Shown piece after piece: positions 1,758 through 61,685 of a stretch of DNA of 64,000 nt; positions within the stretch are counted from its first letter, which is position 1; every line of letters starts with the position of its first letter. The stretch lies in assembly GCA_964511175.1 (NCBI GenBank), contig CAZEEI010000005.1, positions 3,416 through 67,415 on the forward strand, written 5' to 3'. A model generated the notes under the pieces. That model saw only the letters and a list, made by a program, of their open reading frames with translations. It was not told the DNA's origin and did not search any database. Source of the stretch: an uncultured Pseudomonadales bacterium. Lineage in GTDB: Bacteria; Patescibacteriota; Microgenomatia; UBA1400; UBA1396. Position numbers and translations under genes: made by a program.

Positions 1758-3278
1758 TTAGGGCAGGGTAAAAAATTGACTGACTAACGCTTGTCGCTGC
1801 GTTTCATTCCAACCAATCACTACATCTTGTCGCACGTAGAGGTCAGTTACCCGACCGTCGGCGCGATATAAATGGTAATACTGCTTCGTCAGGAGCGGCG
1901 CCAGCGATTGGTAATAGAAACTGCTGGGTTCGGTTTGGAAGTAAACAAAAGCAGGCGGTGCAGCCAACAAAGCCTGCCAGTCGGCCTGAAGTTTGGGTAC
2001 ATTCCAAGCCCAGTTGAGGTGAAACACCTGCTGGTCGGACGTTGGCAGGCTGGTCAGGATGTGCAAATACCCGTCGCCGTCTGGACCGGTCAGAAGAGTA
2101 TCGCCAGGATTCTTCACTAGGTTAAGCGCGTTGGCAATAGCTTGATAAGTCCCGTACTGGATTGCATTTTCGGCTAACCGATTTTTCCGTTCGGCCACCC
2201 AAACTAAATTACCAGTCAGCAAACCTAGCCATATTAGCAGTAATACCCCACGCGCTATTCGGCTGGGCCAGCGCCGCCAGACCGTGGTGGTAGCTACGGC
2301 CAATACTGCTGCCAAGGCTGCCAAATAGGGCCAGAGGTGAAAACCCTGGTAGAACCGAATATTAAAGTGGTCACTGCGGGTGTTTAGTAGCCAAAGACCA
2401 ATCAAAGCCAACCACCACGGCCAGCGTTTTTTACTTTGCCAAATCACCAAACTAACTAGCACAATCGCTGCCGCAAAAAGACGACCTATTGGCTCGCTAA
2501 GTGCCGCTGCTTGAATAAACGGATAAAACAATACGGCCCATCGGTTACCTGGCGTTGCCGCGGGAATGACGTAACGTACTGAAGTTAAAACCGTTTTCTC
2601 CCACCAAGCCGCTGGTGAAATCAGGCCAAACAAAGCGAGGGTCGGCAATAAACCGGCTAGCACTAATAACTTTTTTTGCGGCCAAGGCAGACGCCAAAGG
2701 AACCAGCCAGTCGCCAAGCCAACCAGTGGCCAGAGAGGTAAAAGGTTGAAAAAAGCCCCAAACAAGGCGATTGCCAAAGCAATTACATCAGGAACGGCTA
2801 AACGGTAGTAGGAATCTTGGGCTAAAGCGAAGTAGTAAAGCACAATCGCCGCCACCGCCGGCGCGGCCAAAGATTCACCCAACACATACCAGCCAAAAAA
2901 CCAGTGGGACAACGCCAGCAGCAGCGCACTAGTCAGCAAGCCGCGCCAACGGAAACGAGCCACCAGCCAGGCCGAGCTCACTGCTAAATACACCAGCATC
3001 ACCCAACGAATACGTTCGATTAGTAAGAAAAGCGAATTGTAGGGTAGTAGTTTAGTTAAAATCGCCCCAGCCAGCACCGGCAGAGGTTGGTGCGTTAAGG
3101 AAAGGTCGGTGTACAACCGGCGGCCGGACGACCACATCAGCCAACCCATCGTTAAGTGGTCGGTTTCATCCTGAAAATACCAGGATTGGGAGTGGGAGCG
3201 TAGTCCCCAACCAACCACTACCAACAAAATAAAGAAAATCGGCCAAATCAACCAAGATCGACGGGCAATTAATTTCAT
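1758..3278 (-). CDS. polytopic membrane protein, glycosyltransferase family 39/83-like (ArnT/PMT-type) candidate
   Basis: About 505 aa with more than 10 predicted TM helices (Trp/Leu/Ala-rich) and a C-terminal soluble domain. The supplied ORF starts at TTG 3287; ATG at 3278 gives MKLIARRSW. Confidence 0.5.
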   Translation of the reverse strand: MKLIARRSWLIWPIFFILLVVVGWGLRSHSQSWYFQDETDHLTMGWLMWSSGRRLYTDLSLTHQPLPVLAGAILTKLLPYNSLFLLIERIRWVMLVYLAVSSAWLVARFRWRGLLTSALLLALSHWFFGWYVLGESLAAPAVAAIVLYYFALAQDSYYRLAVPDVIALAIALFGAFFNLLPLWPLVGLATGWFLWRLPWPQKKLLVLAGLLPTLALFGLISPAAWWEKTVLTSVRYVIPAATPGNRWAVLFYPFIQAAALSEPIGRLFAAAIVLVSLVIWQSKKRWPWWLALIGLWLLNTRSDHFNIRFYQGFHLWPYLAALAAVLAVATTTVWRRWPSRIARGVLLLIWLGLLTGNLVWVAERKNRLAENAIQYGTYQAIANALNLVKNPGDTLLTGPDGDGYLHILTSLPTSDQQVFHLNWAWNVPKLQADWQALLAAPPAFVYFQTEPSSFYYQSLAPLLTKQYYHLYRADGRVTDLYVRQDVVIGWNETQRQALVSQFFTLP

Positions 3279-3362
3279 TATAACCAAGCGTACTGCCAGA
3301 TCTATGTTTAATCAATCGTGCTGACTGCCACACCGTATGCTTCCGTTTTAACTCGACTACTC

Positions 3363-3494
3363 TTATGCCGTGAAACGCATATTGGGTAAATGATTGTTTT
3401 GTTTGATAGATAAAGTTAAAAATTAACAGTTAATCGAATATAAAGTCTTCCCCAGATACAAAACCTTGGTTGCTATATGCGTTTCACGGCATAA
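3363..3494. repeat. 20-bp perfect inverted repeat (TTATGCCGTGAAACGCATAT / ATATGCGTTTCACGGCATAA) flanking a 92-bp AT-rich spacer
   Basis: Arms at 3363-3382 and 3475-3494 are exact reverse complements. The element lies in the divergent region between the membrane-protein gene and infC, 10 bp upstream of a TTGACA hexamer. Confidence 0.8.
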
Positions 3495-3584: not shown

Positions 3585-4157
3585 ATTCGTTTTCGACCAC
3601 GCAAACCAAAACATCATGATGTCCGCCCCGCCATGGCGCGCTATGTGATGAATGAAATGATTACCGCGCCACAAGTGCGGCTAATTGATCAGTATGGCGG
3701 CCAAATTGGCGTCATGTCACGCGAAGAAGCGTTGGCTAAAGGTGATGAGGAAGAAAAAGACCTCATCATGATTGCCGACCAAGCCGTACCACCGGTTGTT
3801 AAATTGATTGAACTTTCCAAATTCCGCTACCAAGAGCAACAGAAGCGTCAAGAAGAAGCCAAAAAGTCCAGTAAGGGTAGCGACCTCAAGGAACTGCGTC
3901 TTACTCCCTTTATTGCTGCTGGCGACCTAGAAGCGCGGATTAACCGGGTGCGTGAGTTTTTGGAAGAGGGAAGTAAAGTACGTCTCCACGTCAAATTCCG
4001 CGGCCGGGAAGTAACTAAACCGGAATTCGGCAATCAAGTACTCAAAAAAATATTTGATGCTGTAGCCGATGTGGGCAAAGTGGAAACGGCTCCCAAACTG
4101 GCCGGTAAGTTCATGACTGCTCAGTTAATGCCAACCGGCAAGAAAAAGACGGTTTAG
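3585..4157 (+). CDS. infC: translation initiation factor IF-3 (probable AUU start codon)
   Basis: IF-3 signature (ITAPQVRLIDQYGGQIGVMSREEALAKGDEEEKDLIMIADQAVPPVVKLIE). An in-frame ATT at 3585 sits 4 nt after a strong SD (AAGGAGGT, 3573-3580), and the region to ATG 3633 has no stops. The extension adds an RPRKPK basic N-terminus that aligns with the E. coli IF-3 N-terminus. AUU initiation is the conserved autoregulatory feature of infC. Confidence 0.8.
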   Translation: MRFRPRKPKHHDVRPAMARYVMNEMITAPQVRLIDQYGGQIGVMSREEALAKGDEEEKDLIMIADQAVPPVVKLIELSKFRYQEQQKRQEEAKKSSKGSDLKELRLTPFIAAGDLEARINRVREFLEEGSKVRLHVKFRGREVTKPEFGNQVLKKIFDAVADVGKVETAPKLAGKFMTAQLMPTGKKKTV

Positions 4158-9100: not shown

Positions 9101-10276
9101 CTATCTTTGATCCATGATGATCTTTAGCCGCCGATCCAATTCGTGTATATTCGCCTCATTGCCAGGTATACGTAGCCTAACTATTGAATCATCCATTTTT
9201 GCGTGAGTAGGTTTGAATGTTCCACCATCCTCAGAGCTAACTCCATATTCTAAGAGTTTGCCATAAAATCCTTCTGGTCCTCTGGCCATTAAAATACTTA
9301 CGGAAGGATGGGTGGGAGCCACGGCAACATTATTCGCCTGTAGAACCTCCACCAATTTAGTCTTCAGACTAGCAGTCTTAGCTCTAATTCCTGGTAAGAA
9401 CTTGGCCAGTATTTGAGAGTTAAGAGCAACTTGACTAAGCAAGTGAGTGATAGCATCGACGGTAAAAACCAGTTCAAAATTGCGGTACACATCACCCAAA
9501 TCCTTGGACATAACCGCATAACCCAAACGCGGAGAAGCCAGGCCTATCCCTTTAGAGATAGATCGCAAAACAATGAGATTAGAAAATTGTTCTGTCAATG
9601 GAATAGCCGAGTTCTGGTCGTCTATCAAATCGGCATAGGCTTCGTCAATGATAACGAGGTCTCTATTTTGAGTAACTTGAAGCAATCTGGATAACATTTG
9701 TTGGGTAACAGCGTCACCGGTTGGGTTGTTGGGATTATCAACATAAATTACCGCTTCTTTACGACTTTTTCTGCGATTATCAATCAGGGCCTGAATACTA
9801 TCTACCATTGGTGAGCCTAATTCCAGCTGAATGGGAAAATAGGGGATAGCAGCCCGGTCAGCCAGTAAAGCAATGTTAGTGAACTGCGGACCATAACCAA
9901 TCACTTGAGCGCCACCACGCACGGCATCATGAGAAACAAAGTCTGATAATATTGCCGCTAACAGGCCATAGCTCCCTGCACCATTAAAGAAAATCGGAGA
10001 AATTGGATTGCCGTCTTTATCTCTGTGATCGGTAAGACCAAAACGTCTTCGCACACTCTCTTGCAACTTACGAGCGTAAGGATCCTCGGGATATTCATTG
10101 ATCAAGCGTGGCGTAATTTTGCGGAGAGCGGCATTAATTTCTCTAGGATATCCCAATGGTGAATGTCCTAAACCGCAATCAATTAGAGGAAAATTAGGGT
10201 TAGTTTTAGGCTTCTGAGAAACATAATCTTCACGCTCAATGGGCCTCTTTAACAATCTTGCTCTGACTTTATTCAT
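9101..10276 (-). CDS. class I/II pyridoxal-phosphate aminotransferase (HisC-like)
   Basis: LVIIDEAYADL...LIVLRSISKGIGLASPRLGYAV with the SxSK PLP lysine; 391 aa. Confidence 0.8.
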   Translation of the reverse strand: MNKVRARLLKRPIEREDYVSQKPKTNPNFPLIDCGLGHSPLGYPREINAALRKITPRLINEYPEDPYARKLQESVRRRFGLTDHRDKDGNPISPIFFNGAGSYGLLAAILSDFVSHDAVRGGAQVIGYGPQFTNIALLADRAAIPYFPIQLELGSPMVDSIQALIDNRRKSRKEAVIYVDNPNNPTGDAVTQQMLSRLLQVTQNRDLVIIDEAYADLIDDQNSAIPLTEQFSNLIVLRSISKGIGLASPRLGYAVMSKDLGDVYRNFELVFTVDAITHLLSQVALNSQILAKFLPGIRAKTASLKTKLVEVLQANNVAVAPTHPSVSILMARGPEGFYGKLLEYGVSSEDGGTFKPTHAKMDDSIVRLRIPGNEANIHELDRRLKIIMDQR

Positions 10277-10325
10277 ATTTTACAAGTATATGGGTTTTGC
10301 ATATTTTACAAGTATATGGGTTTTG
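10274..10325. repeat. perfect tandem direct repeat, 2 x 26 bp (CATATTTTACAAGTATATGGGTTTTG)
   Basis: Copies at 10274-10299 and 10300-10325 are identical. Copy 1 includes the aminotransferase start codon (CAT is the complement of ATG). Confidence 0.85.
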
Positions 10326-38970: not shown

Positions 38971-39660
38971 ATGGACCAACCCGGCGCGCTCGCCCCCGAA
39001 TCCGCCAGTGAAGATGCTAGCGAATCTCCAACCAACTCTATCGGGGCAACGACGGCAACCCCTCCTCCTACCGCTACGCCAGCCGGTATACCCCCTAGCA
39101 GTCTACCGGGCAGTCAAGCTTCCCTAGGTCTTCAGGAATCAATAAAATTATTTTCGCCCACGTCCTTGCTCGCTTCAATTCAAACCCAATTTCTGGGCGA
39201 AAAAACCGAAGCCCAACAAAAACAAGAACAAGCCGATTTAGCTAAAGCTCAGCGGCGCGCGGAAACAGAGCGTCAAGCTTTCACCGCCTACCAAGAACGG
39301 CAAAAGGCGGCCGAGCAGCAACGCGTCCAGGCTACCGTACAACTCAAAAGTCAAGCCCGCCAGTTGGGCGCTTATGATGAAAGCTCGGCCGTATTGAGCC
39401 AAACTACCGGCGGCGACCTCAGTGAACAAACGGTAGTTAATTCCGCCAGCAAAGCAGCTCGGGAAAGACAACTTAAGGAACAGCGGGCGCGGCAGATGAT
39501 GGCACAGCAACGCCACGTCAAAAAGGGTCCTCAACCGGAAGGCGGCGAAGGCAAGGTGAGTTTGGTCGACCAAATGACTACTGGCCAAGAAACAGTGACT
39601 ACACCGGCCGAAGACCAAGACGCCCTCCAACGCCAGGCTGAGCAGGCGCTTGGCGAATAA
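38971..39660 (+). CDS. hypothetical low-complexity protein (Pro/Thr-rich N-terminus, Gln/Ala/Arg-rich coiled coil)
   Basis: ATG ORF of 229 aa; compositionally biased. Confidence 0.5.
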   Translation: MDQPGALAPESASEDASESPTNSIGATTATPPPTATPAGIPPSSLPGSQASLGLQESIKLFSPTSLLASIQTQFLGEKTEAQQKQEQADLAKAQRRAETERQAFTAYQERQKAAEQQRVQATVQLKSQARQLGAYDESSAVLSQTTGGDLSEQTVVNSASKAARERQLKEQRARQMMAQQRHVKKGPQPEGGEGKVSLVDQMTTGQETVTTPAEDQDALQRQAEQALGE

Positions 39661-39679
39661 GCTTGGTAAAATAGCTCCC

Positions 39680-40441
39680 ATGTCGGCATTGCGCATAGTT
39701 GAGTTAACTGCCTCGATTAATAACCAGGAAATTTTGCACGGCCTGTCTTTAACGGTTAAACCGGGTGAAATTCACGCAGTCATGGGTCCAAATGGTGCCG
39801 GCAAGTCAACTTTAGCAGCTACTTTGGCCGGCCATCCAGCTTACCAAGTGGGCGCCACTTCACGTTTACAACTAGATCGCCACAATCTCGTGACGCTTAC
39901 GCCCGACGAACGGGCGCGGTTGGGTTTATTCCTGGCTTTCCAATATCCTACTGAAATTCCAGGTGTTTCGGTCCAAAACTTTTTGCGAGCCATGTGGGAG
40001 GCGCGGTTTGGACCACTGGGACCACAAAACCGCTATCCTTCCGTGTTAGCTTTGCGCCAATATTTAACCCAGCTGGCCCAAGAACTTTCGATCAAACCAG
40101 AATTGCTGCGACGCAACCTGAATGAGGGTTTTTCTGGTGGCGAAAGGAAGCGTCTAGAGATTTTGCAGATGGCAGTTTTTGAACCTAGGTACGCTATTTT
40201 GGATGAAACGGATTCTGGGCTGGATATCGATGCTATTAAAATTGTGGCTCAGGGAGCGCAGACTATTGTGAACCGCTTCCATACTGGCATTATTATAATT
40301 ACTCACTACCAACGTATCCTCCAATTTTTGCGGCCAGATTTTGTCCACGTTTTGGCGGGCGGCAAAATTGTGACCAGCGGTGGTGTCGAGTTAGCTGATA
40401 AACTAGAAAAGGAAGGGTACGCCCAATATCAAAACTTATGA
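39680..40441 (+). CDS. sufC: Fe-S cluster assembly ATPase SufC
   Basis: GPNGAGKSTL Walker A, ABC signature FSGGERKR, Walker B ILDETDSGLD. The supplied ORF starts at TTG 39650; ATG 39680 is used. Confidence 0.85.
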   Translation: MSALRIVELTASINNQEILHGLSLTVKPGEIHAVMGPNGAGKSTLAATLAGHPAYQVGATSRLQLDRHNLVTLTPDERARLGLFLAFQYPTEIPGVSVQNFLRAMWEARFGPLGPQNRYPSVLALRQYLTQLAQELSIKPELLRRNLNEGFSGGERKRLEILQMAVFEPRYAILDETDSGLDIDAIKIVAQGAQTIVNRFHTGIIIITHYQRILQFLRPDFVHVLAGGKIVTSGGVELADKLEKEGYAQYQNL

Positions 40442-40929
40442 ATGAATCAGTCCGTCAACCACAACAATTAACTCCTAACGTCAAACTGCTCCAAAAAATA
40501 GCCTTGGTTAGCCAGGGCAAAGTTCTCCTGTTACGCCGCGATGCGGCTTCGTTCTCCCGCCCCGGCGCTTGGGATTTACCAGGCGGCAACTCTGAATGGC
40601 CCGCCACCACTGAGCCAACGGTCAATCTGCACCAAATTGATGCTGCCAGGGAAGTAGAAGAAGAAACCGGGATTGGCCTCACACCCGACCAGTTTGCGTT
40701 GGCAAATTTAATTCATCTAGAAACCCATTTTGACCCAGAGCGACAAATCTTCACGGTTTTACTGGGTTGGCGAATAGTTTTACCTGACTCTTTTGGTCTT
40801 GAGTCGATTCGTCTTAGTCAGGAGCACACTGATTACCTTTGGAGCAAACTGGACGAAGCCAGTTTAATGGACTTTGGTGGAAATAAAGGCCAATTTATGC
40901 AACGTATTTTACAGGAAGCAGCCGCTTAA
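40438..40929 (+). CDS. NUDIX hydrolase
   Basis: Nudix box GG...REVEEETGI; the start overlaps the sufC stop (ATGA). Confidence 0.7.
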   Translation: MNESVRQPQQLTPNVKLLQKIALVSQGKVLLLRRDAASFSRPGAWDLPGGNSEWPATTEPTVNLHQIDAAREVEEETGIGLTPDQFALANLIHLETHFDPERQIFTVLLGWRIVLPDSFGLESIRLSQEHTDYLWSKLDEASLMDFGGNKGQFMQRILQEAAA

Positions 40930-40980
40930 AAATTCTTGTTTTGCGCCGTTTGGTAACTATCTCATCAGGATGTTCTGTTT

Positions 40981-41000
40981 ATTTGTACATATGTACAAAT
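40981..41000. promoter_or_regulatory. 20-bp perfect palindrome ATTTGTACATATGTACAAAT (candidate operator), copy 1
   Basis: Exact self-complementary 20-mer; identical to 60798-60817. With flanks the match extends to a 24-mer GTTTATTTGTACATATGTACAAAT plus a shared GAACA at +6..+10. Overlaps the putative promoter and start of the downstream two-gene cassette. Confidence 0.6.
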
Positions 41001-41281
41001 TCTCTGAACACGATAAAAAGGCACTCTATCTGCGTCGTGGTCTAGAAACCAGAATCATCTCAGCAGGTGAATTTAGGCAAGATATGTTTATTTTACACCG
41101 CCAATTTTTGCACCCTCACACCGAGCAACAATATCTCATTGTTGTGCGTAATATGAAGGAAGGACATGACATGTTTCTCGTTACTCCTCTAGATCCGCTT
41201 GGCCGTTTTGAAGTACAAGAGTATATGAATTATGTTCAATCCGAATTAACCTATTACCGACAAAAGGGGTTGTTACCATGA
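40991..41281 (+). CDS. small hypothetical protein, putative antitoxin-like partner of the downstream PIN-like gene
   Basis: First ATG lies at the palindrome centre (leaderless?); alternative ATG 41084. The stop overlaps the next start (ATGA at 41278). The supplied ORF starts at TTG 40874. Confidence 0.35.
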   Translation: MYKFSEHDKKALYLRRGLETRIISAGEFRQDMFILHRQFLHPHTEQQYLIVVRNMKEGHDMFLVTPLDPLGRFEVQEYMNYVQSELTYYRQKGLLP

Positions 41282-41658
41282 CTGGCGGTCTTCTCGTAGA
41301 CGAAGTTGCCTTTCTTTATCTGGCACAACAGCGAAATAGGGCCTACCGCAACTTGCTGCGCGAAAGCTTTCAGAATAATGCCGCTTTATACCTTCTGCCG
41401 GAAGTGGTTTTATACCTCTACCAACACCAAAATTTAAACTTGCCTCTCAGTGTTTTTGAACCGTTTCGGTTGCTAACCCCAGAAACAGCCGTATTGGTCG
41501 GAGCTTGCCGCTGGGCCGTCAAAAAACAACTGCCACTACACCGAGCCTTAATTATTTATGCGGCCCACTTCTATCGCACTAGGGTAGCAATTATCGATTA
41601 CCACCTTTATGGTGGTTTGGGTCTGCCACACCACTATCGGCATTACATTAGCGGGTAG
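41278..41658 (+). CDS. PIN-domain-like (VapC-like) protein candidate
   Basis: 126 aa with an acidic residue pattern compatible with PIN: D8 (LLVDEVAF), E42 (LLPEVV), D107 (AIIDYH). Translationally coupled to the upstream small ORF. Confidence 0.4.
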   Translation: MTGGLLVDEVAFLYLAQQRNRAYRNLLRESFQNNAALYLLPEVVLYLYQHQNLNLPLSVFEPFRLLTPETAVLVGACRWAVKKQLPLHRALIIYAAHFYRTRVAIIDYHLYGGLGLPHHYRHYISG

Positions 41659-41674
41659 CAGGTACAATACACCC

Positions 41675-43105
41675 ATGGCGCGCTTTGCCCCTATCCACAG
41701 TCAGACTCCAGTCAACAATTTGACTGATCAGCCATATGAACATGGTTATTCTTTTAGTACCGCCGATTATGCCCTTATTACGGAACCGGGAATCAACCAA
41801 CGCATTGTGGAATTAATTAGCCACCATAAGAATGAACCGGATTGGATGCGTCGGCTTCGCCTGGATGCCTTACACCAATTCTTGGCTAAACCTTTGCCGA
41901 CTTGGGGAGCCGATTTGTCGGGCATTAATTTTGATACCCTTCACTACTATCTTCGGCCGCTCAGTCAAGCGGCTAAAACTTGGGCGGAAGTACCGGCGGA
42001 CATCAAAACCACTTTCGAACGGATTGGCGTACCGAAAGCTGAACGGGAATACTTAGCCGGGGTCAAAATGCAGTACGACAGCGAGGTGGTGTATGGTTCG
42101 CTGAAAAAACAGTGGGAACAAGACGGCGTTATTTTCCTGTCTATGGACGAAGGACTAGCGCAATATCCCGACTTGGTGCGGGAGTATTTTGGCAGAATTA
42201 TTCCAGCCGGCGATAACAAATTTGCCGCTCTCAACACCGCCGTTTGGAGCGGCGGATCATTCGTTTACGTGCCGCCTGGCGTAGAAGTAAAAATGCCTCT
42301 CCAAACCTACTTTCGCATTAATGCCCGTAGTGCCGGCCAGTTTGAGCGTACTTTGGTTATTGTCGACGAGGGCGCCAAAGTTCACTACCAAGAAGGCTGC
42401 ACTGCTCCTTCTTTTACGGAAAGCTCTCTGCACGCAGCGGTCGTGGAGATTATTGTAAAAAAGGGTGCTCGCTGCCAGTACACCACCGTCCAAAATTGGT
42501 ACAAAAATGTTTACAACCTAGTGACCAAGCGAGCCAAAGTGGCGGCGGAGGGGACTATGGTCTGGACCGACTTCAACCTGGGCTCAAAAGTAACGATGAA
42601 ATATCCTGGGTTTATCTTGGCCGGCGCCGGTGCAACCGGAGAAGTTTTATCCATGGCCATCGCCGGCGCCGGCCAGCACCAAGACACCGGCAGTAAGGCC
42701 ATTCATCTGGCTCCGCACACCAGTTCGACTATCGTCGCCAAATCGATTAGTAAGGATGGCGGGCGGGCGGGCTATCGTGGTCTAGTTCACGTCAGCCCGC
42801 CCGCCCACCACAGCAAAAACAAAGTCGTCTGCGACGCTCTCATTTTGGATCCGCGCAGCCGCAGCGACACCTATCCCACACAGCGCGTCTATACCAGCCA
42901 AGTACAGTTAGAGCACGAAGCCACCGTCAGCCGCATTGGTGAAGAACAGCTTTTTTACCTAATGAGCCGCGGCCTCACCGAAGAAGCGGCTGGTAAAATG
43001 ATCGTTCGGGGTTTTGCTGAACCATTGGTTAAGAAACTACCGCTCGAGTACGCAGTGGAAATGAATCGCCTCATCGACCTGGAAATGGAGGGATCCATTG
43101 GTTAA
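41675..43105 (+). CDS. sufB: Fe-S cluster assembly protein SufB
   Basis: About 477 aa with the SufB/SufD beta-helix core; alternative longer start ATG 41609. Confidence 0.85.
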   Translation: MARFAPIHSQTPVNNLTDQPYEHGYSFSTADYALITEPGINQRIVELISHHKNEPDWMRRLRLDALHQFLAKPLPTWGADLSGINFDTLHYYLRPLSQAAKTWAEVPADIKTTFERIGVPKAEREYLAGVKMQYDSEVVYGSLKKQWEQDGVIFLSMDEGLAQYPDLVREYFGRIIPAGDNKFAALNTAVWSGGSFVYVPPGVEVKMPLQTYFRINARSAGQFERTLVIVDEGAKVHYQEGCTAPSFTESSLHAAVVEIIVKKGARCQYTTVQNWYKNVYNLVTKRAKVAAEGTMVWTDFNLGSKVTMKYPGFILAGAGATGEVLSMAIAGAGQHQDTGSKAIHLAPHTSSTIVAKSISKDGGRAGYRGLVHVSPPAHHSKNKVVCDALILDPRSRSDTYPTQRVYTSQVQLEHEATVSRIGEEQLFYLMSRGLTEEAAGKMIVRGFAEPLVKKLPLEYAVEMNRLIDLEMEGSIG

Positions 43106-45149: not shown

Positions 45150-45362
45150 CGACTGAACGCGCAAGCATCAGATTGGTAATTGTGTTAGAATTAAGGAACA
45201 ACTAACAACAACGTTAACTTGGCTTCCAACCAGGGAGTTGGCCGGGGTCGCAACCGGTTCGGGTAAGCCCGTCACAGCCGGAATAAGTAGCAAACGGTGG
45301 CACCTTCGTCCCGAACCGTGCAGGGGAAATGGGAGGGTGCCTTTTTAGCACTCTCTATAGTC
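45150..45362 (+). promoter_or_regulatory. candidate T-box riboswitch leader of serS (Ser-specific)
   Basis: AAACGGUGGCACC matches the T-box consensus AnnnGGGUGGnACC, with UGGC complementary to the tRNA-Ser 3' end GCCA (discriminator G). A terminator GGCACC..UCCC / GGGAGGGUGCC plus UUUUU lies immediately before the serS SD. UCC-A occurs in the upstream stem region. Confidence 0.35.
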
Positions 45363-53654: not shown

Positions 53655-55430
53655 TTAACTAGCCGCAGCACTGGGTGGTTGGTGTTCCGCACTAATGTTG
53701 TAGCGGGACAGCACTTGTTGGACGCCAGGCAGAATCGTCTCTAAAGCCTGTTGCGCGTTACCGGTGCGCACCGTCTCATTTACTGCATCGGTGTAGTACT
53801 GGATTAGTTGGTCATCCAAACCTTCGTCATGGGTGTACGACGCCATAAACCAGGAGTCGGCATACAACGCATCTTCTAAATAAGGCGCAATGAGTTTATT
53901 ACTGCTCAGTTCCGCAGCCATATCAACCCGTGGATAAAGCTCGCCGAAACCGCGCACGGAAGCGGCCTGGGTTTGGAAGCGACGCAACTGCTCCGGCTGA
54001 CTAAGCCAGGCCAGAAAACGCCAGGCTTCCGCGGTATTCTTAGAGGCCTTACTAACCCCTTCCACCCAGTAGCTGGACCAGGCTAAACGCTGTCCACCCA
54101 ACTGCGGCAAAGCGGTAACCCCAAACTGTAAATTTGGATTCAAGCGCTGAATTTCAAAAATACGCCAGGAAGGAGCCAAAATCATGGCTACCTGTTCGTT
54201 GGCAAAAGCTACCGTGGAGTTGGGCATGGTTTCGTCCCAAACTTTATCCGAACGGCTGAAGATGGTATAGAACTCCAGGGCGTGCCGGGCATTTTCACTA
54301 ACCGGATTACCCGGTTGAGCCGAATTCTGGAGGAGCATTAGAGCCAGAATGTCGGAAAAAGAATCAACGTTGCTGGTTGTCCCCAAGGCAATACCACCGC
54401 GTTCCAGGCGATCGTTGTTGCGAACGGCTAATTGGGAAGCCAAGGTGCGCACTTGCTCCCAATCCTTAGGAGGTTGGGCGTTGGCCGTGGTCAGCATGGA
54501 TTGGTTGTAGAGCAGCGCCAGACCTTCGTACATTAGCGGCACACCCAGTACGTCAGTGCCACCGGCCAGTTCTTTAGCCATGATTGGATAATAATTTTGG
54601 CGCAGTTCGGCTAAACTAACGGTGTCGGTGGTGGCGGGCGCCAGATCGGTAGATAACATCGGCAGCCAAGTATTGTGGTAACGGAAAATATCTGGACCCG
54701 AACCATCACGGATGGCGGCTTGCAGCCGCTGGCGGTATTGTTCGCTTTTTTGTTGAACGTAAGTTATTTTGATATTGGCGTGGTCTTTTTGGTACGCCTC
54801 GATTAAAGCGTTCATCACCTCCGGCGGTTCCCATAGTCCCCAGTAAGTAAGGGTCACGTTACGACTGGCGGGAGTGGTAGTTTTAACCGCTACTTCCGGC
54901 TCGCTGGGTCGCAAAAACAGATAGCCGCCAATCATGATAAGTAGCATTAGCAATCCGCCCACCGCCGCCATAATTAAATTACGCCGCCGGGTAAAGAAGG
55001 AGGGCAGTTTAGCGGCAGCTGCCGCGACTGGTTGACCAGCCGGCGGTTTACCACTGGGAGGCAAACCAAAACCAGCTGTCTCCTGCGGAACACCACCTAC
55101 TGAAGTGGGAGACGGGATTTTTGGCGCCGCAACTGAGGCTGGCGGCATACCTGGTAAACCAGTGACTGGCGGCGGCGTAGGTTGAACCGCGGCAGCAGTC
55201 TGGAAGGGAGCCGGGTTAACCGATTGCAAATTCTGGAGGAAACGACTAGAAATTGGCGGCGGCTGTACAGGCTGTACACTAGCTACAGGAGTTACTGGTG
55301 CCGGCGTCACTGATAGGGGAGGCGCTACCGGCGGTGCTACCGGCCTCACCGGAGTTGGCACCATCCCAGGGGATACCGGGGTCAAAACCGGCCGGGAAGG
55401 CGGAATGAGCGGATTAGTGGTGTCAGCCAT
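53655..55430 (-). CDS. ABC-type extracellular solute-binding protein (family 1, MalE-like) with Pro-rich N-terminal repeat region and TM anchor
   Basis: VTLTYWGLWEPPEV...GPDIFRYHNTWLPML SBP_bac_1-like. The N-terminal 90 aa are PxxP-rich, followed by a TM helix. Confidence 0.7.
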   Translation of the reverse strand: MADTTNPLIPPSRPVLTPVSPGMVPTPVRPVAPPVAPPLSVTPAPVTPVASVQPVQPPPISSRFLQNLQSVNPAPFQTAAAVQPTPPPVTGLPGMPPASVAAPKIPSPTSVGGVPQETAGFGLPPSGKPPAGQPVAAAAAKLPSFFTRRRNLIMAAVGGLLMLLIMIGGYLFLRPSEPEVAVKTTTPASRNVTLTYWGLWEPPEVMNALIEAYQKDHANIKITYVQQKSEQYRQRLQAAIRDGSGPDIFRYHNTWLPMLSTDLAPATTDTVSLAELRQNYYPIMAKELAGGTDVLGVPLMYEGLALLYNQSMLTTANAQPPKDWEQVRTLASQLAVRNNDRLERGGIALGTTSNVDSFSDILALMLLQNSAQPGNPVSENARHALEFYTIFSRSDKVWDETMPNSTVAFANEQVAMILAPSWRIFEIQRLNPNLQFGVTALPQLGGQRLAWSSYWVEGVSKASKNTAEAWRFLAWLSQPEQLRRFQTQAASVRGFGELYPRVDMAAELSSNKLIAPYLEDALYADSWFMASYTHDEGLDDQLIQYYTDAVNETVRTGNAQQALETILPGVQQVLSRYNISAEHQPPSAAAS

Positions 55431-58701: not shown

Positions 58702-60462
58702 TTATTTGACCGTAACGCTTTTGGCCAAATTCCGCGGCCGATCAGGATTATTGCCCCGTAAAATGGCCAGGTGGTAGGCCAGCAGCTGGCTGAAGAGCGC
58801 GGCGGCGGCGAGTTGAGCCAAAGGTTCTTCCGGCAAGATAATGGATCGGTCAAATACCGCATCCGATTGGGTTGCGATCCCCACGAGCCAGCCGCCGCGC
58901 GCTTTTAACTCCAGCGCCGTGGTTATCGTTTCCGTCTGCTGTTGAGCCGAACCAAATAACAAGCACGGCACTCCCGCCTCAATTAAGGCCAAAGTTCCGT
59001 GTTTTAACTCACCGGCTGCCATCGCTTCTGCGTGCAAATAACTAATCTCTTTAATCTTCAGAGCTGCTTCTAAGGCGATCGGTAAAAATGAACCACGCCC
59101 TAACAAAAAAAGATTAGGTTGATTGGTCAGTTCTTTGGCTAATTGTTCGATTTTACCCAGCCAAATTTGATCCCGTAGTAAGCTGTCCAATACCTCTGCT
59201 GCTGCTTCAACCGAACACTTTCCTGCGGAGAAGTGGCCGCTAATCATCTGGGATAACCAAAAAAGCAGAGCCATTTTAGCCATGAAGGCTTTAGTCGAAG
59301 CCACCGCTTTTTCCCGACCGGCCGCTAATTGTAATTTAAGGTCGGCCATCCGGTCTAAGGTTGACCAGGGGGAGTTGGTAATAGCGATCACCTTGGCGCC
59401 GCGCGCCTGCCACTGGATCAACGGCTCAACCACATCAATAGTTTCACCACTCTGAGAAAGTACAACTACTACTGTTCCCTCGGCGATGAAACGTGTGAAA
59501 GAAGACGCCTCACTCGCTAAAATCGTACGGGAAGCAATGCCTTGGGCTGCTAAAAATTGTTCACCAAGTAGAGCGGCGTGCCAGGCTGTTCCGCAAGCTA
59601 GGAAGTAAATTGCCGGTGCTTTGACTAGGCGATCAACTACCGGTTGCAGTTCTGTCTCAGCGCGCTGACTCAGACGATGAAGTACTGTCGGTTGTTGGTT
59701 AATTTCGCGCAACATTTGGTGGGGGAAACGACCATCATCTTGATCAATCGTATCGGCCGATATTTGACGCCATACCGGCATTATCACTTCTCCCGATTCT
59801 TGGTAAAACCAAGCTTGCTCGGCCGATAATTGAGCCAACTGGCCATCGGCTAGAAATAAGACTTGGTTAGTCAAACTGGCCAGCGCGGCGCCGTCAGAAG
59901 CCACTGCGTAACCATCGGCCAAACGACCTACGGCTAAAGGGGAACCGCGTCGCCCTAAAAATAGGCGCCGCGCGCGCAAGGCCAGCAGTACCACCGCATT
60001 CAAACCGGTCAACCGTGACCACGTCTGTTGCCAGGCTTGCCAAACATCCCCACACTGCTGGTAGTTGGCCACCATTAAGTGAACAATCACTTCGGAGTCG
60101 GTTTCGGAACGGAAACTGTATCCCTGATTTTGCAATTCCTCACGCAGCAACAAAAAGTTTTCAACAATACCGTTATGAACTACGGCAAATTGGCCGTCCG
60201 CACTCAAATGCGGATGGGCGTTAGCTACGGTTACGCCGCCGTGGGTAGCCCAACGGGTATGGCCGATACCCAATTGGGTAGGTTGCCAATGCAAAGATTC
60301 CACTTTAATCGGCCCCACTTCTTTGTGTGTCTCCAACCGACCATTTTGTTCGACAGTCACGCCCCAGGAGTCATAACCCCGGTACTCCAAATCCCGCAAT
60401 CCAGCCAAGATTTCGTCAGCGGGATGTTTTTTACTGGTCACTAAACCAAAGATGCCGCACAT
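58702..60462 (-). CDS. glmS: glutamine--fructose-6-phosphate aminotransferase
   Basis: MCGIFG N-terminal nucleophile; two SIS domains; 586 aa. Confidence 0.9.
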   Translation of the reverse strand: MCGIFGLVTSKKHPADEILAGLRDLEYRGYDSWGVTVEQNGRLETHKEVGPIKVESLHWQPTQLGIGHTRWATHGGVTVANAHPHLSADGQFAVVHNGIVENFLLLREELQNQGYSFRSETDSEVIVHLMVANYQQCGDVWQAWQQTWSRLTGLNAVVLLALRARRLFLGRRGSPLAVGRLADGYAVASDGAALASLTNQVLFLADGQLAQLSAEQAWFYQESGEVIMPVWRQISADTIDQDDGRFPHQMLREINQQPTVLHRLSQRAETELQPVVDRLVKAPAIYFLACGTAWHAALLGEQFLAAQGIASRTILASEASSFTRFIAEGTVVVVLSQSGETIDVVEPLIQWQARGAKVIAITNSPWSTLDRMADLKLQLAAGREKAVASTKAFMAKMALLFWLSQMISGHFSAGKCSVEAAAEVLDSLLRDQIWLGKIEQLAKELTNQPNLFLLGRGSFLPIALEAALKIKEISYLHAEAMAAGELKHGTLALIEAGVPCLLFGSAQQQTETITTALELKARGGWLVGIATQSDAVFDRSIILPEEPLAQLAAAALFSQLLAYHLAILRGNNPDRPRNLAKSVTVK

Positions 60463-60757
60463 GTCGACCTTTCTTTTTTCGCTTAATCAGAAAACCGAAG
60501 CAGTTGCTTCGGACAGTGTGATCAAAGACTTTGTTCCAGCGTTTACACGCTGGCTTTAATCCTGATCTCAGTTGGTGGACTGCCAACCACCAGAGGGTCT
60601 CCGCTGATGCTCGCTTTCGCCACGGAAAGCGGTCCGATCACGCTTTAGGGTGTAACCCTCCAGGCGTATCCCTCCTCCTCGTTACCCGCCAATTGGCGGG
60701 CCAGACGCTCGTCAAAAGTGTGATTTAGGGAGGCCTCCTTTCGCTATGATTGGTCTC
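60463..60757 (-). promoter_or_regulatory. long structured glmS 5' leader (candidate riboswitch / attenuator)
   Basis: Minus-strand promoter TGtgTATAAT at 60758-60767 gives a roughly 290-nt leader. The leader holds multiple GC hairpins (CCCGCC-AAUU-GGCGGG, CGCUUUC-N6-GAAAGCG, CCAGCG-UGUAAA-CGCUGG) and UAACGAGGAGGAGGG, which resembles the glmS-ribozyme GACGAGGAUGGAGG core. It ends in the terminator hairpin. Confidence 0.4.
60485..60512 (-). terminator. intrinsic terminator-like hairpin (CCGAAGC-AACU-GCUUCGG plus UUUUCUGAUU) inside the glmS 5' leader, about 25 nt before the SD
   Basis: 7-bp GC-rich stem followed by a U-tract on the minus strand, between the leader and the glmS RBS. This is the classic expression-platform position. 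Confidence 0.55.
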
Positions 60758-60797
60758 ATTATACACATTACCGACTTCTTTTTTGGCTGCTCAGTTT

Positions 60798-60817
60798 ATT
60801 TGTACATATGTACAAAT
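60798..60817. promoter_or_regulatory. 20-bp perfect palindrome ATTTGTACATATGTACAAAT (candidate operator), copy 2
   Basis: Identical to 40981-41000. It sits in the divergent region, about 30 bp upstream of the glmS leader -10 and 92 bp upstream of ORF 60909. Confidence 0.6.
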
Positions 60818-60908
60818 AAATCGAACATGCTGACGTAATAATTACGACCGATTTATATGCTAGTGAGTGTGTTAGAATAACCGAAAACTTATCGCTTGAA
60901 AGGAAAAT

Positions 60909-61289
60909 ATGGGTCGCACTCCTCATAGTAGTAGCCGTGAAAATGTAGAATCTACTCTTCAGGACAGTATGAACCTCCGGGATGCACTCTTGACTTTAGG
61001 CGCGGAGCAGCGCCTCCTTTCTATGCACCCTGTTCCTGAAGAAGCGGTGACAATGGCCATCCATCAAATTACTAGGAATAAAAATCGTTTACAGGCCATG
61101 GCCGATTTACAAATCCTTCATAACATTGCTACAAATCTCTTGCGAATGTTCGAAACCACCGAATATTTAAGTCTTTTCCCACATTATAATCGACTGTGGA
61201 ACATCATCAATGATGCTCGCGCTCTTACTCAACTAGGAGATGACTATCGCGTCGAATTGACGCGTCGTGGCGCTAAAAATCCGCGCTAA
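60909..61289 (+). CDS. small hypothetical protein (126 aa), paralog of the next gene
   Basis: ATG with an AAGGAA SD. Shares AMADLQILHNI...FPHYNRLWNII with the downstream protein's VMADLQTLQTHI...FDHYTDLWLIV. Confidence 0.5.
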   Translation: MGRTPHSSSRENVESTLQDSMNLRDALLTLGAEQRLLSMHPVPEEAVTMAIHQITRNKNRLQAMADLQILHNIATNLLRMFETTEYLSLFPHYNRLWNIINDARALTQLGDDYRVELTRRGAKNPR

Positions 61290-61355
61290 CACTTGACCAC
61301 TAGATGGTGTGTTTGTGTTAGAATGATCGACAAAGCCAAAGATTGGAGCTAAATT

Positions 61356-61685
61356 ATGGCGCGTATCCTAAATCAAGAAACTACCTTTTCGCCGGAAATT
61401 CTTGCGGGCTGGGGTATAAAACCGGAATCACTCAGTCATCCCATCACAACTGAGACTATTCAGCAAATTGTTGCGCGGATACGGCTACAACAAGACCCTG
61501 CTTGTGTTATGGCTGATTTACAAACTCTGCAGACTCATATCGAAAAGATAAAAGGTCGGTATGATGATGACGATGACGATGATGTTCGCCAAAAAATTTT
61601 TGATCACTACACCGATCTCTGGCTTATTGTTTTTGACACCATGGAAGCTTTGCAGGAAATCGAAACTCCTAATACTTTAAGATAA
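61356..61685 (+). CDS. small hypothetical protein (109 aa) with poly-Asp run, paralog of the previous gene
   Basis: ATG with a GGAG SD; DDDDDDD run. Confidence 0.5.
   Translation: MARILNQETTFSPEILAGWGIKPESLSHPITTETIQQIVARIRLQQDPACVMADLQTLQTHIEKIKGRYDDDDDDDVRQKIFDHYTDLWLIVFDTMEALQEIETPNTLR

Follow-up and report, generated by a model that had tools for sequence, protein, structure and literature searches.

The 64,000-nucleotide stretch of contig CAZEEI010000005.1 analysed here (hereafter the window) carries one 20-bp perfect palindrome, ATTTGTACATATGTACAAAT, at two loci about 20 kb apart, and the question raised by this repeat is which protein, if any, reads it. Our analysis suggests that the palindrome probably serves a type II toxin-antitoxin (TA) module as its operator, and that the second copy is a duplicated, gene-less version of this operator, next to glmS and at the head of two small genes, ORFa and ORFb. 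For the first copy taken alone, gene content and comparison with relatives make a strong case: it is very likely the autoregulatory operator of a divergent antitoxin/PIN-like cassette (ORF1 and ORF2) inserted in a suf gene cluster.

An exact search places the palindrome at positions 40981-41000 (copy 1) and 60798-60817 (copy 2) and reveals no third copy within the window at up to 3 mismatches; none of 100 dinucleotide-preserving shuffles of the window contained any 20-mer match. The original prediction, which was made from the letters of this DNA, had held that the 20-mer occurs exactly twice and beyond chance, and these results bear it out. Its description of the flanks holds as well. Identity continues for 4 more nucleotides (GTTT) on the left, giving 24 identical nucleotides, and for 0 nucleotides on the right, where GAACA is common to both copies after a 5-nt gap (41006-41010 and 60823-60827). 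The next 13 nucleotides on the left are the same in the two copies at 10 positions (P ~2e-4). Each copy forms the centre of an imperfect palindrome of ~46 bp, with TGTTC or TGCTC as the left outer arm and GAACA as the right one. The extended element of copy 1 covers 40968-41010 (TGTTC at 40971-40975) and includes the left flank shared with copy 2. The extended element of copy 2 covers 60785-60827 (TGCTC at 60788-60792) and makes up the left edge of a lineage-specific insertion of ~0.9 kb that separates the glmS leader from murD; here the perfect palindrome grows to 26 bp (60795-60820). No homology of the two loci is found past ~45 bp, and because local alignment of the 160-nt flanks is no better than that of shuffles, the shared unit is ~45 bp long.

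The 14-bp core of the palindrome, TGTACATATGTACA (40984-40997 in copy 1), consists of two TGTACA hexamers (40984-40989 and 40992-40997) with their centres 8 bp apart. Five sites, drawn from four organisms, were aligned, and this core does not vary among them. Only the two window copies share the GTTT, the left flank and the outer arms, which are not present in relatives, and degenerate outer hexamers 13 bp away are likewise seen in the window only. Two TGTACA hexamers 9 bp apart also arise at 55264-55278 from a tandem 9-nt repeat, TGTACAGGCTGTACA, which sits in the 5' part of a solute-binding-protein gene (53655-55430, minus strand) and is most likely a coding repeat.

Copy 1 is found in the gene order sufC (39650-40441), a NUDIX gene (40438-40929, assigned by Pfam), palindrome, ORF1, ORF2, sufB (41675-43105) and a SufBD-core gene (sufD). 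The dyad axis of the palindrome falls between 40990 and 40991, at the A of its central ATG, and this ATG is the start codon of ORF1 (40991-41281, plus strand), which encodes a putative antitoxin or repressor of 96 amino acids. ORF1 overlaps by 4 bp (ATGA) with ORF2 (41278-41658, plus strand), whose product of 126 amino acids is a PIN-like putative toxin or corepressor. Codon usage of both genes is host-like, and in their own frame only. The region holding the cassette (40930-41674) sits within an otherwise tightly packed sufC-NUDIX-sufB-sufD cluster, and ORF2 ends 17 nt before sufB; transcripts that read through the TA operator region, or start in it, may therefore be needed for expression of sufBD. 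Adjoining the suf genes is a type IV pilus cluster.

The same junction was compared in related genomes. SufB relatives are 80-83% identical to the SufB of the window (the named ones, mostly Patescibacteria, stand at ~72%). In L159, L160 and L163/L164, sufC, NUDIX and sufB are contiguous with a NUDIX-sufB gap of 5-15 bp, and in L162 sufC and sufB are contiguous; neither the small ORFs nor a TGTACA-NN-TGTACA site is present at the junction in these loci. L161, on the other side, carries two small genes, homologs of ORF1 and ORF2, at exactly the same NUDIX-sufB junction, and L165/L166 show the order NUDIX, spacer, ORF1', ORF2'. Both L161 and L165/L166 have the site together with the cassette (CTGTACATATGTACAC in L161 and GCTGTACATATGTACACAT in L165/L166), and the core TGTACATATGTACA falls on that same start codon. 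In both, the gene is called from the central ATG, and the ORF1 orthologs (P0243 in L165/L166) begin with MY(K/T)F as in the window. Conservation in relatives had been proposed as a check on the site, and what we find is a site on the ORF1 start codon in L161 and L165/L166 that is missing from the cassette-free relatives. By this comparison, the ORF1-ORF2 pair is a lineage-specific insertion between NUDIX and sufB. The inserted segments of the copy 1 and copy 2 loci are both AT-richer, with a G+C fraction of 0.438 and 0.424 vs 0.48-0.52 in the flanking core genes. The contig to which L161 and L155 belong (ENA ERZ25039545 contig_130668) shows many fragmented genes, including T2SSF, a prepilin peptidase and an ORF1' with two compensating frameshifts, and these look like indel errors of long-read assembly and not like real pseudogenes.

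The relatives also indicate where translation and transcription of the cassette would begin. In L165, an in-frame TGA is located 13 nt upstream of the palindromic ATG with no start codon between them, so that translation can start no earlier than at the palindromic ATG. The end of a TTGGTT-18-TATGAT promoter lies 11 nt ahead of this ATG, which implies a leaderless or nearly leaderless mRNA. Just after the palindrome, the window differs from L161 and L165 by an in-frame 6-nt indel, L161 and L165 differ by synonymous multi-base switches (AGC/TCA for Ser, TTG/CTC and CTC/TTA for Leu), and further changes fall on third positions (TTC/TTT, AAA/AAG, CGT/CGC). As judged from these substitutions, the sequence right after the palindrome is under coding constraint. 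In the window, TTGGTA (40950-40955) stands 41 nt before the ATG, the same distance as that of TTGGTT-18-TATGAT in L165, and it is from this positional match with L165 and L161 that we infer a TA-operon promoter at 40950-40979 on the plus strand, with TCTGTT in the -10 position (40974-40979).

An independent case was obtained from scans for the 18-mer TTTGTACATATGTACAAA of the palindrome, which retrieved ~150 loci (~104 non-redundant sites) blind to their gene content. There are 29 scattered matches in 185,579 species genomes, none of them from a relative of the window, at least 120 loci in the metagenome scan and 3 in the viral scan. When ORF1 was compared by tblastn and jackhmmer with all of the 18-mer loci, only L136 was found (E 2e-5; 40% identity over 45 residues). 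In L136 the same 22-bp palindrome, ATATTTGTACATATGTACAAAT, precedes by 25 nt a gene of 103 aa in the antitoxin position (its product starting with MKTIYVSVSEFRAQF), and the next gene, which overlaps it, encodes a PIN/VapC protein by Pfam (PF01850, E 3.6e-16) and by NCBIfam (VapC, E 2.6e-11). An automated look for TA-like pairs beside the other ~100 non-redundant occurrences of the 18-mer gave no further ORF1 homolog. The presence of the same operator beside homologous antitoxin/PIN genes (~36-40% protein identity) is the strongest argument that the palindrome would be read by the antitoxin.

ORF2 is 37% identical to its L161 ortholog (E 2e-23) and ORF1 is 30% identical to its L161 homolog. A weak relation of ORF2 to the PIN protein of L136 is seen by BLASTP (E 2e-4) and with a profile of three orthologs (E 8e-4, 87 columns, in register from the N-terminus). 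The ORF2 orthologs (41278-41658 in the window, 9607-10029 in L161, 3326-3667 in L165) share an invariant LHRALI in place of the third catalytic Asp of PIN domains and have no conserved fourth acidic residue. ORF2 thus looks PIN-derived but possibly inactive, and may be a catalytically dead toxin.

Taken together, several traits of type II TA modules are found: an overlapping pair of small genes with the antitoxin position first in the window, L161, L165/L166 and L136, and a palindrome that lies on the start codon in three genomes and 25 nt upstream of it in L136 and is gone in the cassette-free relatives. It had been suggested that the palindrome resembles an antitoxin or repressor operator and that copy 1 extends over the start of a vapBC-like cassette. 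Both suggestions have gained in substance, the first from a site which is inherited with ORF1-ORF2 and kept beside the homologous antitoxin of L136, the second from the 4-bp-overlapping ORF1/ORF2 and their homology to an antitoxin and Pfam-confirmed PIN pair with the same palindrome.

We propose that ORF1, as a small antitoxin-like protein arranged much like Phd/YefM, forms a dimer that binds both TGTACA hexamers of TGTACATATGTACA, probably joined by the PIN-like ORF2 in the role of corepressor. Copy 1 would cover the ORF1 start codon as well as the region where transcription starts, the mRNA being leaderless or nearly so, and because of this position its occupancy would shut off the ORF1-ORF2 operon, in the manner of classical TA autorepression. 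The cassette would be an accessory insertion inside the sufC-NUDIX-sufB-sufD cluster. Copy 2, which has no antitoxin gene, would stand directly upstream of the glmS promoter, at the head of another accessory insertion (ORFa/ORFb), and through binding there the state of the TA system would bear on ORFa/ORFb and possibly on glmS. We infer the binding itself, the direction of regulation and the function of copy 2 from sequence and gene order.

Several observations weigh against this proposal. ORF1 matches no Pfam, NCBIfam or PDB family: neither ORF1 nor ORF2 has a match in Pfam, NCBIfam or PADLOC, and sequence searches of the PDB with the ORF1 profile and with the L136 antitoxin returned noise or nothing. 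An exhaustive HMMER search with ORF1 through 1.84 billion cluster representatives gave two credible relatives only, one of which is P0243. Against the Pfam PhdYeFM model (PF02604) ORF1 has no match at E up to 10, and jackhmmer searches from YefM, Phd and Axe found nothing in all of the fetched loci. Aligned by hhalign with four Phd/YefM sequences, the ORF1 family gives a weak match, E 0.006 over 56 columns in register, at a probability of 6%. AlphaFold2 models of ORF1, alone and with a 3-sequence alignment, have a predicted local distance difference test score of 52 and 48, respectively, and are unusable. ORF2 has no direct PIN match and at least one catalytic acidic residue is gone, so it may not be a toxin. 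A consensus (sigma-70) promoter scan is empty at copy 1, and the window has a poor -10 where L165 would lead one to expect it. The hexamers are spaced by 8 bp in the window, L161, L165 and L136, vs 12 bp in the operators of yefM-yoeB and of axe-txe considered below. Copy 2 is located ~56 bp upstream of the inferred glmS start and ~68-87 bp upstream of the start site of the best promoter candidate for ORFa, neither being a typical repressor position, and its identity to copy 1 could reflect a very recent duplication or gene conversion and not selection. Finally, the same 18-mer is a probable TetR operator in Bradyrhizobium, so the sequence alone does not name the binding protein.

At the second locus, a leader (60510-60767, minus strand) stands in front of glmS (58702-60462, minus strand), with a glmS ribozyme at 60510-60720 (Rfam RF00234, 60.2 bits) and a predicted extended -10, TGTGTATAAT, at plus-strand positions 60758-60767; the centre of copy 2 is located ~47 bp upstream of this -10. 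On the other side lie ORFa (60909-61289, plus strand, 126 aa), an orphan gene with coding-like codon usage and an extended -10, TGTTAGAAT, at 60870-60878, and ORFb (61356-61685, plus strand, 109 aa), its tandem paralog (BLASTP E 5e-6), which has its own GTGTTAGAAT-type -10 (61309-61333) and is followed by murD. Among 5.8 billion proteins ORFa finds only itself, and neither ORFa nor ORFb has a match in Pfam, NCBIfam or PADLOC. In L155, L156 and L158 murD diverges directly from the glmS ribozyme leader, and neither ORFa/ORFb nor the palindrome is present at their glmS-murD junction. The closest GlmS homologs are 53-55% identical to that of the window, the named ones, at 42-44%, belong to Patescibacteria/Candidate Phyla Radiation and Thermomicrobiales, and a metagenome protein scan with GlmS found no relative. 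From these GlmS and SufB relationships, the bacterium is probably Patescibacteria-like.

Some further features were seen around this locus. The glmS leader can be recognised by eye in L155 and L158, with the promoter of the divergent murD right next to it. Extended -10 elements of the GTGTTAGAAT type (repeat family D5) are present upstream of ORFa (60863-60887), ORFb (61309-61333) and serS (45176-45200), and most promoters of this lineage seem to combine an extended -10 (TGn-TAnnnT) with a weak -35; the glmS promoters of the relatives look alike. A perfect 13-bp palindrome, CGTAATAATTACG, is located at 60834-60846 between copy 2 and the -10 of ORFa; it has no second copy in the window, its near matches are at chance level, and it resembles the 7-1-7 box of the Zur/Fur type, TCGTAATnATTACGA. 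Two other repeats are found elsewhere in the window, namely a pair of perfect 20-nt inverted repeats, TTATGCCGTGAAACGCATAT and ATATGCGTTTCACGGCATAA (3363-3382 and 3475-3494), which are 92 nt apart and a short way upstream of infC (3633-4157), and a tandem 26-nt direct repeat, TTATTCATATTTTACAAGTATATGGG (10269-10320, 92% identical), at the divergent junction of genes ending or starting at 10276 and 10364.

The reading frame from the central ATG of copy 2 is ATG TAC AAA TAA, which stops at once, so that copy 2 is without an antitoxin gene. Copy 2 nevertheless keeps recognisable remnants of the 5' codons of ORF1 (ATG TAC AAA ... GAA CAY G). With the outer arms, the GTTT and the left flank restricted to the two window copies, these remnants make an intragenomic duplication of ~45 bp, comprising the TA promoter, operator and 5' end, the simplest history of copy 2. 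Since then, as it appears, the two copies have diverged unevenly: the 24-nt core has no change, while 9 of the 25 flank positions have changed (10 of 13 are identical on the left and 6 of 12 on the right). At the flank rate, a core without changes has a chance of ~2e-5, or 2e-3 when the left flank alone is used. An intact core between diverged flanks suggests that copy 2 is a maintained trans-operator and, most likely, is still bound by the same protein; a function in trans we consider slightly better supported than its absence. The small regulon of the original prediction is a possibility for copy 2. An unannotated promoter equivalent to the TA promoter may be present at copy 2.

The alternative that survives best is a relic. 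It says that a second TA cassette or a duplicated ORF1 5' end between glmS and murD has decayed, that copy 1 is the sole working operator and that there is no regulon, the palindrome alone surviving at copy 2 since the duplication or gene conversion was recent. TA loci are known to decay and move, and the frame of copy 2 that stops after 3 codons, the remnants of ORF1 coding sequence that follow, the absence of an antitoxin-like ORF after copy 2 and of a promoter overlapping it would all fit such a history. Against it, the core is unchanged next to the 9 flank changes, and the perfect palindrome is longer in copy 2 (26 bp) than in copy 1, which is the opposite of decay. A hint that extra sites recur comes from L158, a relative with a G+C fraction of 0.63, where TGTACA hexamers cluster beside glmS. 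We hold a relic to be possible, though not the likely outcome.

All five TGTACA hexamers of the 8-kb L158 contig, on which ~1 would be expected, lie within 110 bp of non-coding sequence (3187-3297), just downstream of glmS and between the convergent glmS and glycosyltransferase genes. The cluster includes TGTACAGTTGTACA, which has the same 8-bp geometry, and two (A/G)TGTACAAAGT repeats. It may be an orphan antitoxin-binding array. A bolder proposal can be built on such sites: ORF1/ORF2 could be a domesticated TA module, in which the PIN partner, having lost catalytic residues, would serve mainly as corepressor and the antitoxin would act as a trans-acting regulator of ORFa/ORFb, and perhaps of glmS, through selectively maintained orphan operators, of which copy 2 and the five-hexamer array by glmS in L158 would be examples. 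This proposal is tentative and, on the present evidence, rather unlikely.

A different kind of doubt concerns the identity of the protein. Another, unlinked transcription factor, for example of the TetR, GntR or BlaI/CopY type, might bind both copies, the overlap with the TA start being incidental. In Bradyrhizobium (L007) the identical 18-mer is located immediately upstream of a TetR-family gene (Pfam TetR_N and TetR_C_30), the core holds TACAnnTGTA, a type of box known for CopY/BlaI, and profile searches recognise no DNA-binding domain in ORF1. On the other hand, gain and loss of the site go with those of the ORF1-ORF2 cassette across six relatives, the distant L136 keeps it beside a homologous antitoxin, and no regulator gene of those families is present among the window ORFs scanned, which represent part of the genome. 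It is because site and cassette are co-inherited, the L136 case included, that ORF1 is favoured as the reader of the site, and this co-inheritance argues for ORF1 over a different regulator, which we regard as improbable.

Almost all other loci of the 18-mer are unrelated to the window, such as an intergenic region of gut Ruminococcus, the Bradyrhizobium TetR promoter and a coding region of Brevibacillus. The 18-mer is found by a TTGAC-type promoter in L005, L007, L009, L014, L015, L017, L020-L022, L025, L026 and many soil metagenome loci, which represent Bradyrhizobium and allied Alphaproteobacteria and an independent use of the same palindrome. In L010, L030, L035 and ~40 human-gut metagenome loci it is kept in an intergenic region of gut Ruminococcus/Ruminococcoides, between acyltransferase-like and glycerophosphotransferase-like genes, where it is flanked by ATATATACAAAA repeats.

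The original prediction had compared the palindrome with LexA-type boxes, which would make it an SOS box bound by a LexA dimer at the GTAC-N4-GTAC of two damage-inducible promoters. LexA boxes have the form CGAAC-N4-GTTCG in Gram-positive bacteria and RGTAC-N3-DGTWCB in cyanobacteria. The core of the palindrome fits GTAC-N4-GTWC, a box of the cyanobacterial type, and resembles the Gram-positive CGAACATATGTTCG, while the outer GAACA/TGTTC arms look like halves of a Cheo box. The genes tell otherwise: no SOS gene (lexA, recA, uvr, dinB, imuAB) is next to either copy, copy 1 having NUDIX, the TA pair and sufB as its neighbours and copy 2 having glmS, ORFa/ORFb and murD, and no S24/LexA domain is found among the 33 window ORFs scanned. 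Relatives keep or lose the site strictly with the TA cassette, and their NUDIX-sufB and glmS-murD junctions without insertions have none. An identity of 24 nucleotides is far above the usual sharing among boxes of one regulon. The degenerate GTAC-N4-GTAC sites, a search for which had also been proposed, are not enriched in the window (12 sites at up to 1 mismatch vs 14.6 expected). A site that travels with a TA cassette, sits on the antitoxin start codon and has the YefM/Axe motif as its core does not bear out a LexA box, which we consider very improbable.

Equally improbable is a structural or mobile repeat, an RNA hairpin or a terminator with no protein-binding role: although the hairpins of the 46-nt elements (-12.4, -14.8 and -19.3 kcal/mol) are more stable than those of shuffles, with z from -3.3 to -6.8, and copy 1 is located ~50 nt past the NUDIX stop, any perfect palindrome folds well and the z-scores are therefore uninformative, the stem is AT-rich with no U-tract after either hairpin, a terminator scan is empty at both sites, and copy 2 has no plus-strand upstream gene to terminate. 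Nor is the longer mobile sequence in many contexts, an alternative raised in the original prediction itself, what was found, since a miniature inverted-repeat transposable element or repetitive extragenic palindrome is opposed by the two copies in 64 kb, the ~45 bp shared between them, the positional conservation of the site in relatives and the failure to find terminal repeats, target duplications or longer homology.

With ORF1 as the probable reader of the palindrome, four "orphan" genes and a striking repeat can be understood together, as a divergent antitoxin/PIN-like pair and its predicted operator, from an antitoxin family that escapes current profiles. If the domesticated module described above were real, operons for cell-envelope precursors and for Fe-S clusters in a Patescibacteria-like bacterium would be connected by a small TA-derived regulon. 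Should copy 2 be functional, it would represent a natural case of an antitoxin regulating unlinked genes, with the TA module lodged in the sufCB operon and its extra operator beside a glmS ribozyme leader. The 18-mer, which is also a probable TetR operator, calls for caution in motif-based regulon prediction, since a palindrome alone does not name its regulator.

Among known systems, the LexA/SOS box shares with our site a palindromic 4-N4-4 core with a central ATAT, and differs from it in gene context, in the co-inheritance of our site with a TA cassette, in the 24-nt identity and in the presence of SOS genes, which neither locus has. Antitoxins can regulate unlinked genes through extra palindromes, as MqsA does at the rpoS and csgD promoters. 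The likeness to MqsA is that a palindrome identical to the autoregulatory one is present at a second locus without a TA gene; the difference is that copy 2 is only a putative site, outside the classical position of a repressor relative to the inferred promoters. With VapBC the cassette shares two genes with a 4-bp overlap, a PIN-related second gene, a palindrome at the promoter and a patchy, insertion-like distribution among close relatives, and the L136 homolog is a bona fide PIN/VapC protein. In contrast to VapC, ORF2 of the window and its orthologs are not seen by PIN profiles and have lost at least the third acidic residue, so that RNase activity is doubtful.

The closest parallel to the operator is found in yefM-yoeB of E. 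coli and in axe-txe. YefM, enhanced by YoeB, binds adjacent palindromes with the core 5'-TGTACA-3', whose centres are 12 bp apart and which overlap the promoter (Kedzierska et al. 2007, PMC1802561), and in diverse bacteria paired TGTACA hexamers occur no more than 80 bp from the start of yefM (PMC1802561). Axe-Txe of Enterococcus has the same TGTACA cores and spacing (PMC7730913). Our site likewise has two TGTACA hexamers at most 80 bp from the antitoxin start, overlapping the promoter/start region, the palindromy of the hexamers runs into their flanks, and a small antitoxin gene comes first with the toxin gene overlapping it. The N-terminal pattern of ORF1 and its L136 homolog, with a predicted strand-helix-strand-strand-helix order, is a further likeness and weak evidence; this order is compatible with the Phd/YefM fold and proves nothing. 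In contrast to the YefM operators, the 8-bp spacing fuses the hexamers into one perfect palindrome of 14-20 bp, the partner is PIN-like and not YoeB/Txe (RelE-fold) or Doc, the start codon lies on the dyad axis, and a second, gene-less copy is located 20 kb away. The TGTACA operator code of YefM and Axe would thereby extend to another hexamer geometry and to a PIN-like partner. The palindrome would then belong to a known kind, the type II TA operator with TGTACA cores, in a form made unusual by its 8-bp spacing, by a dyad axis that coincides with the start codon, by a PIN partner that is probably degenerate and by an orphan second operator.

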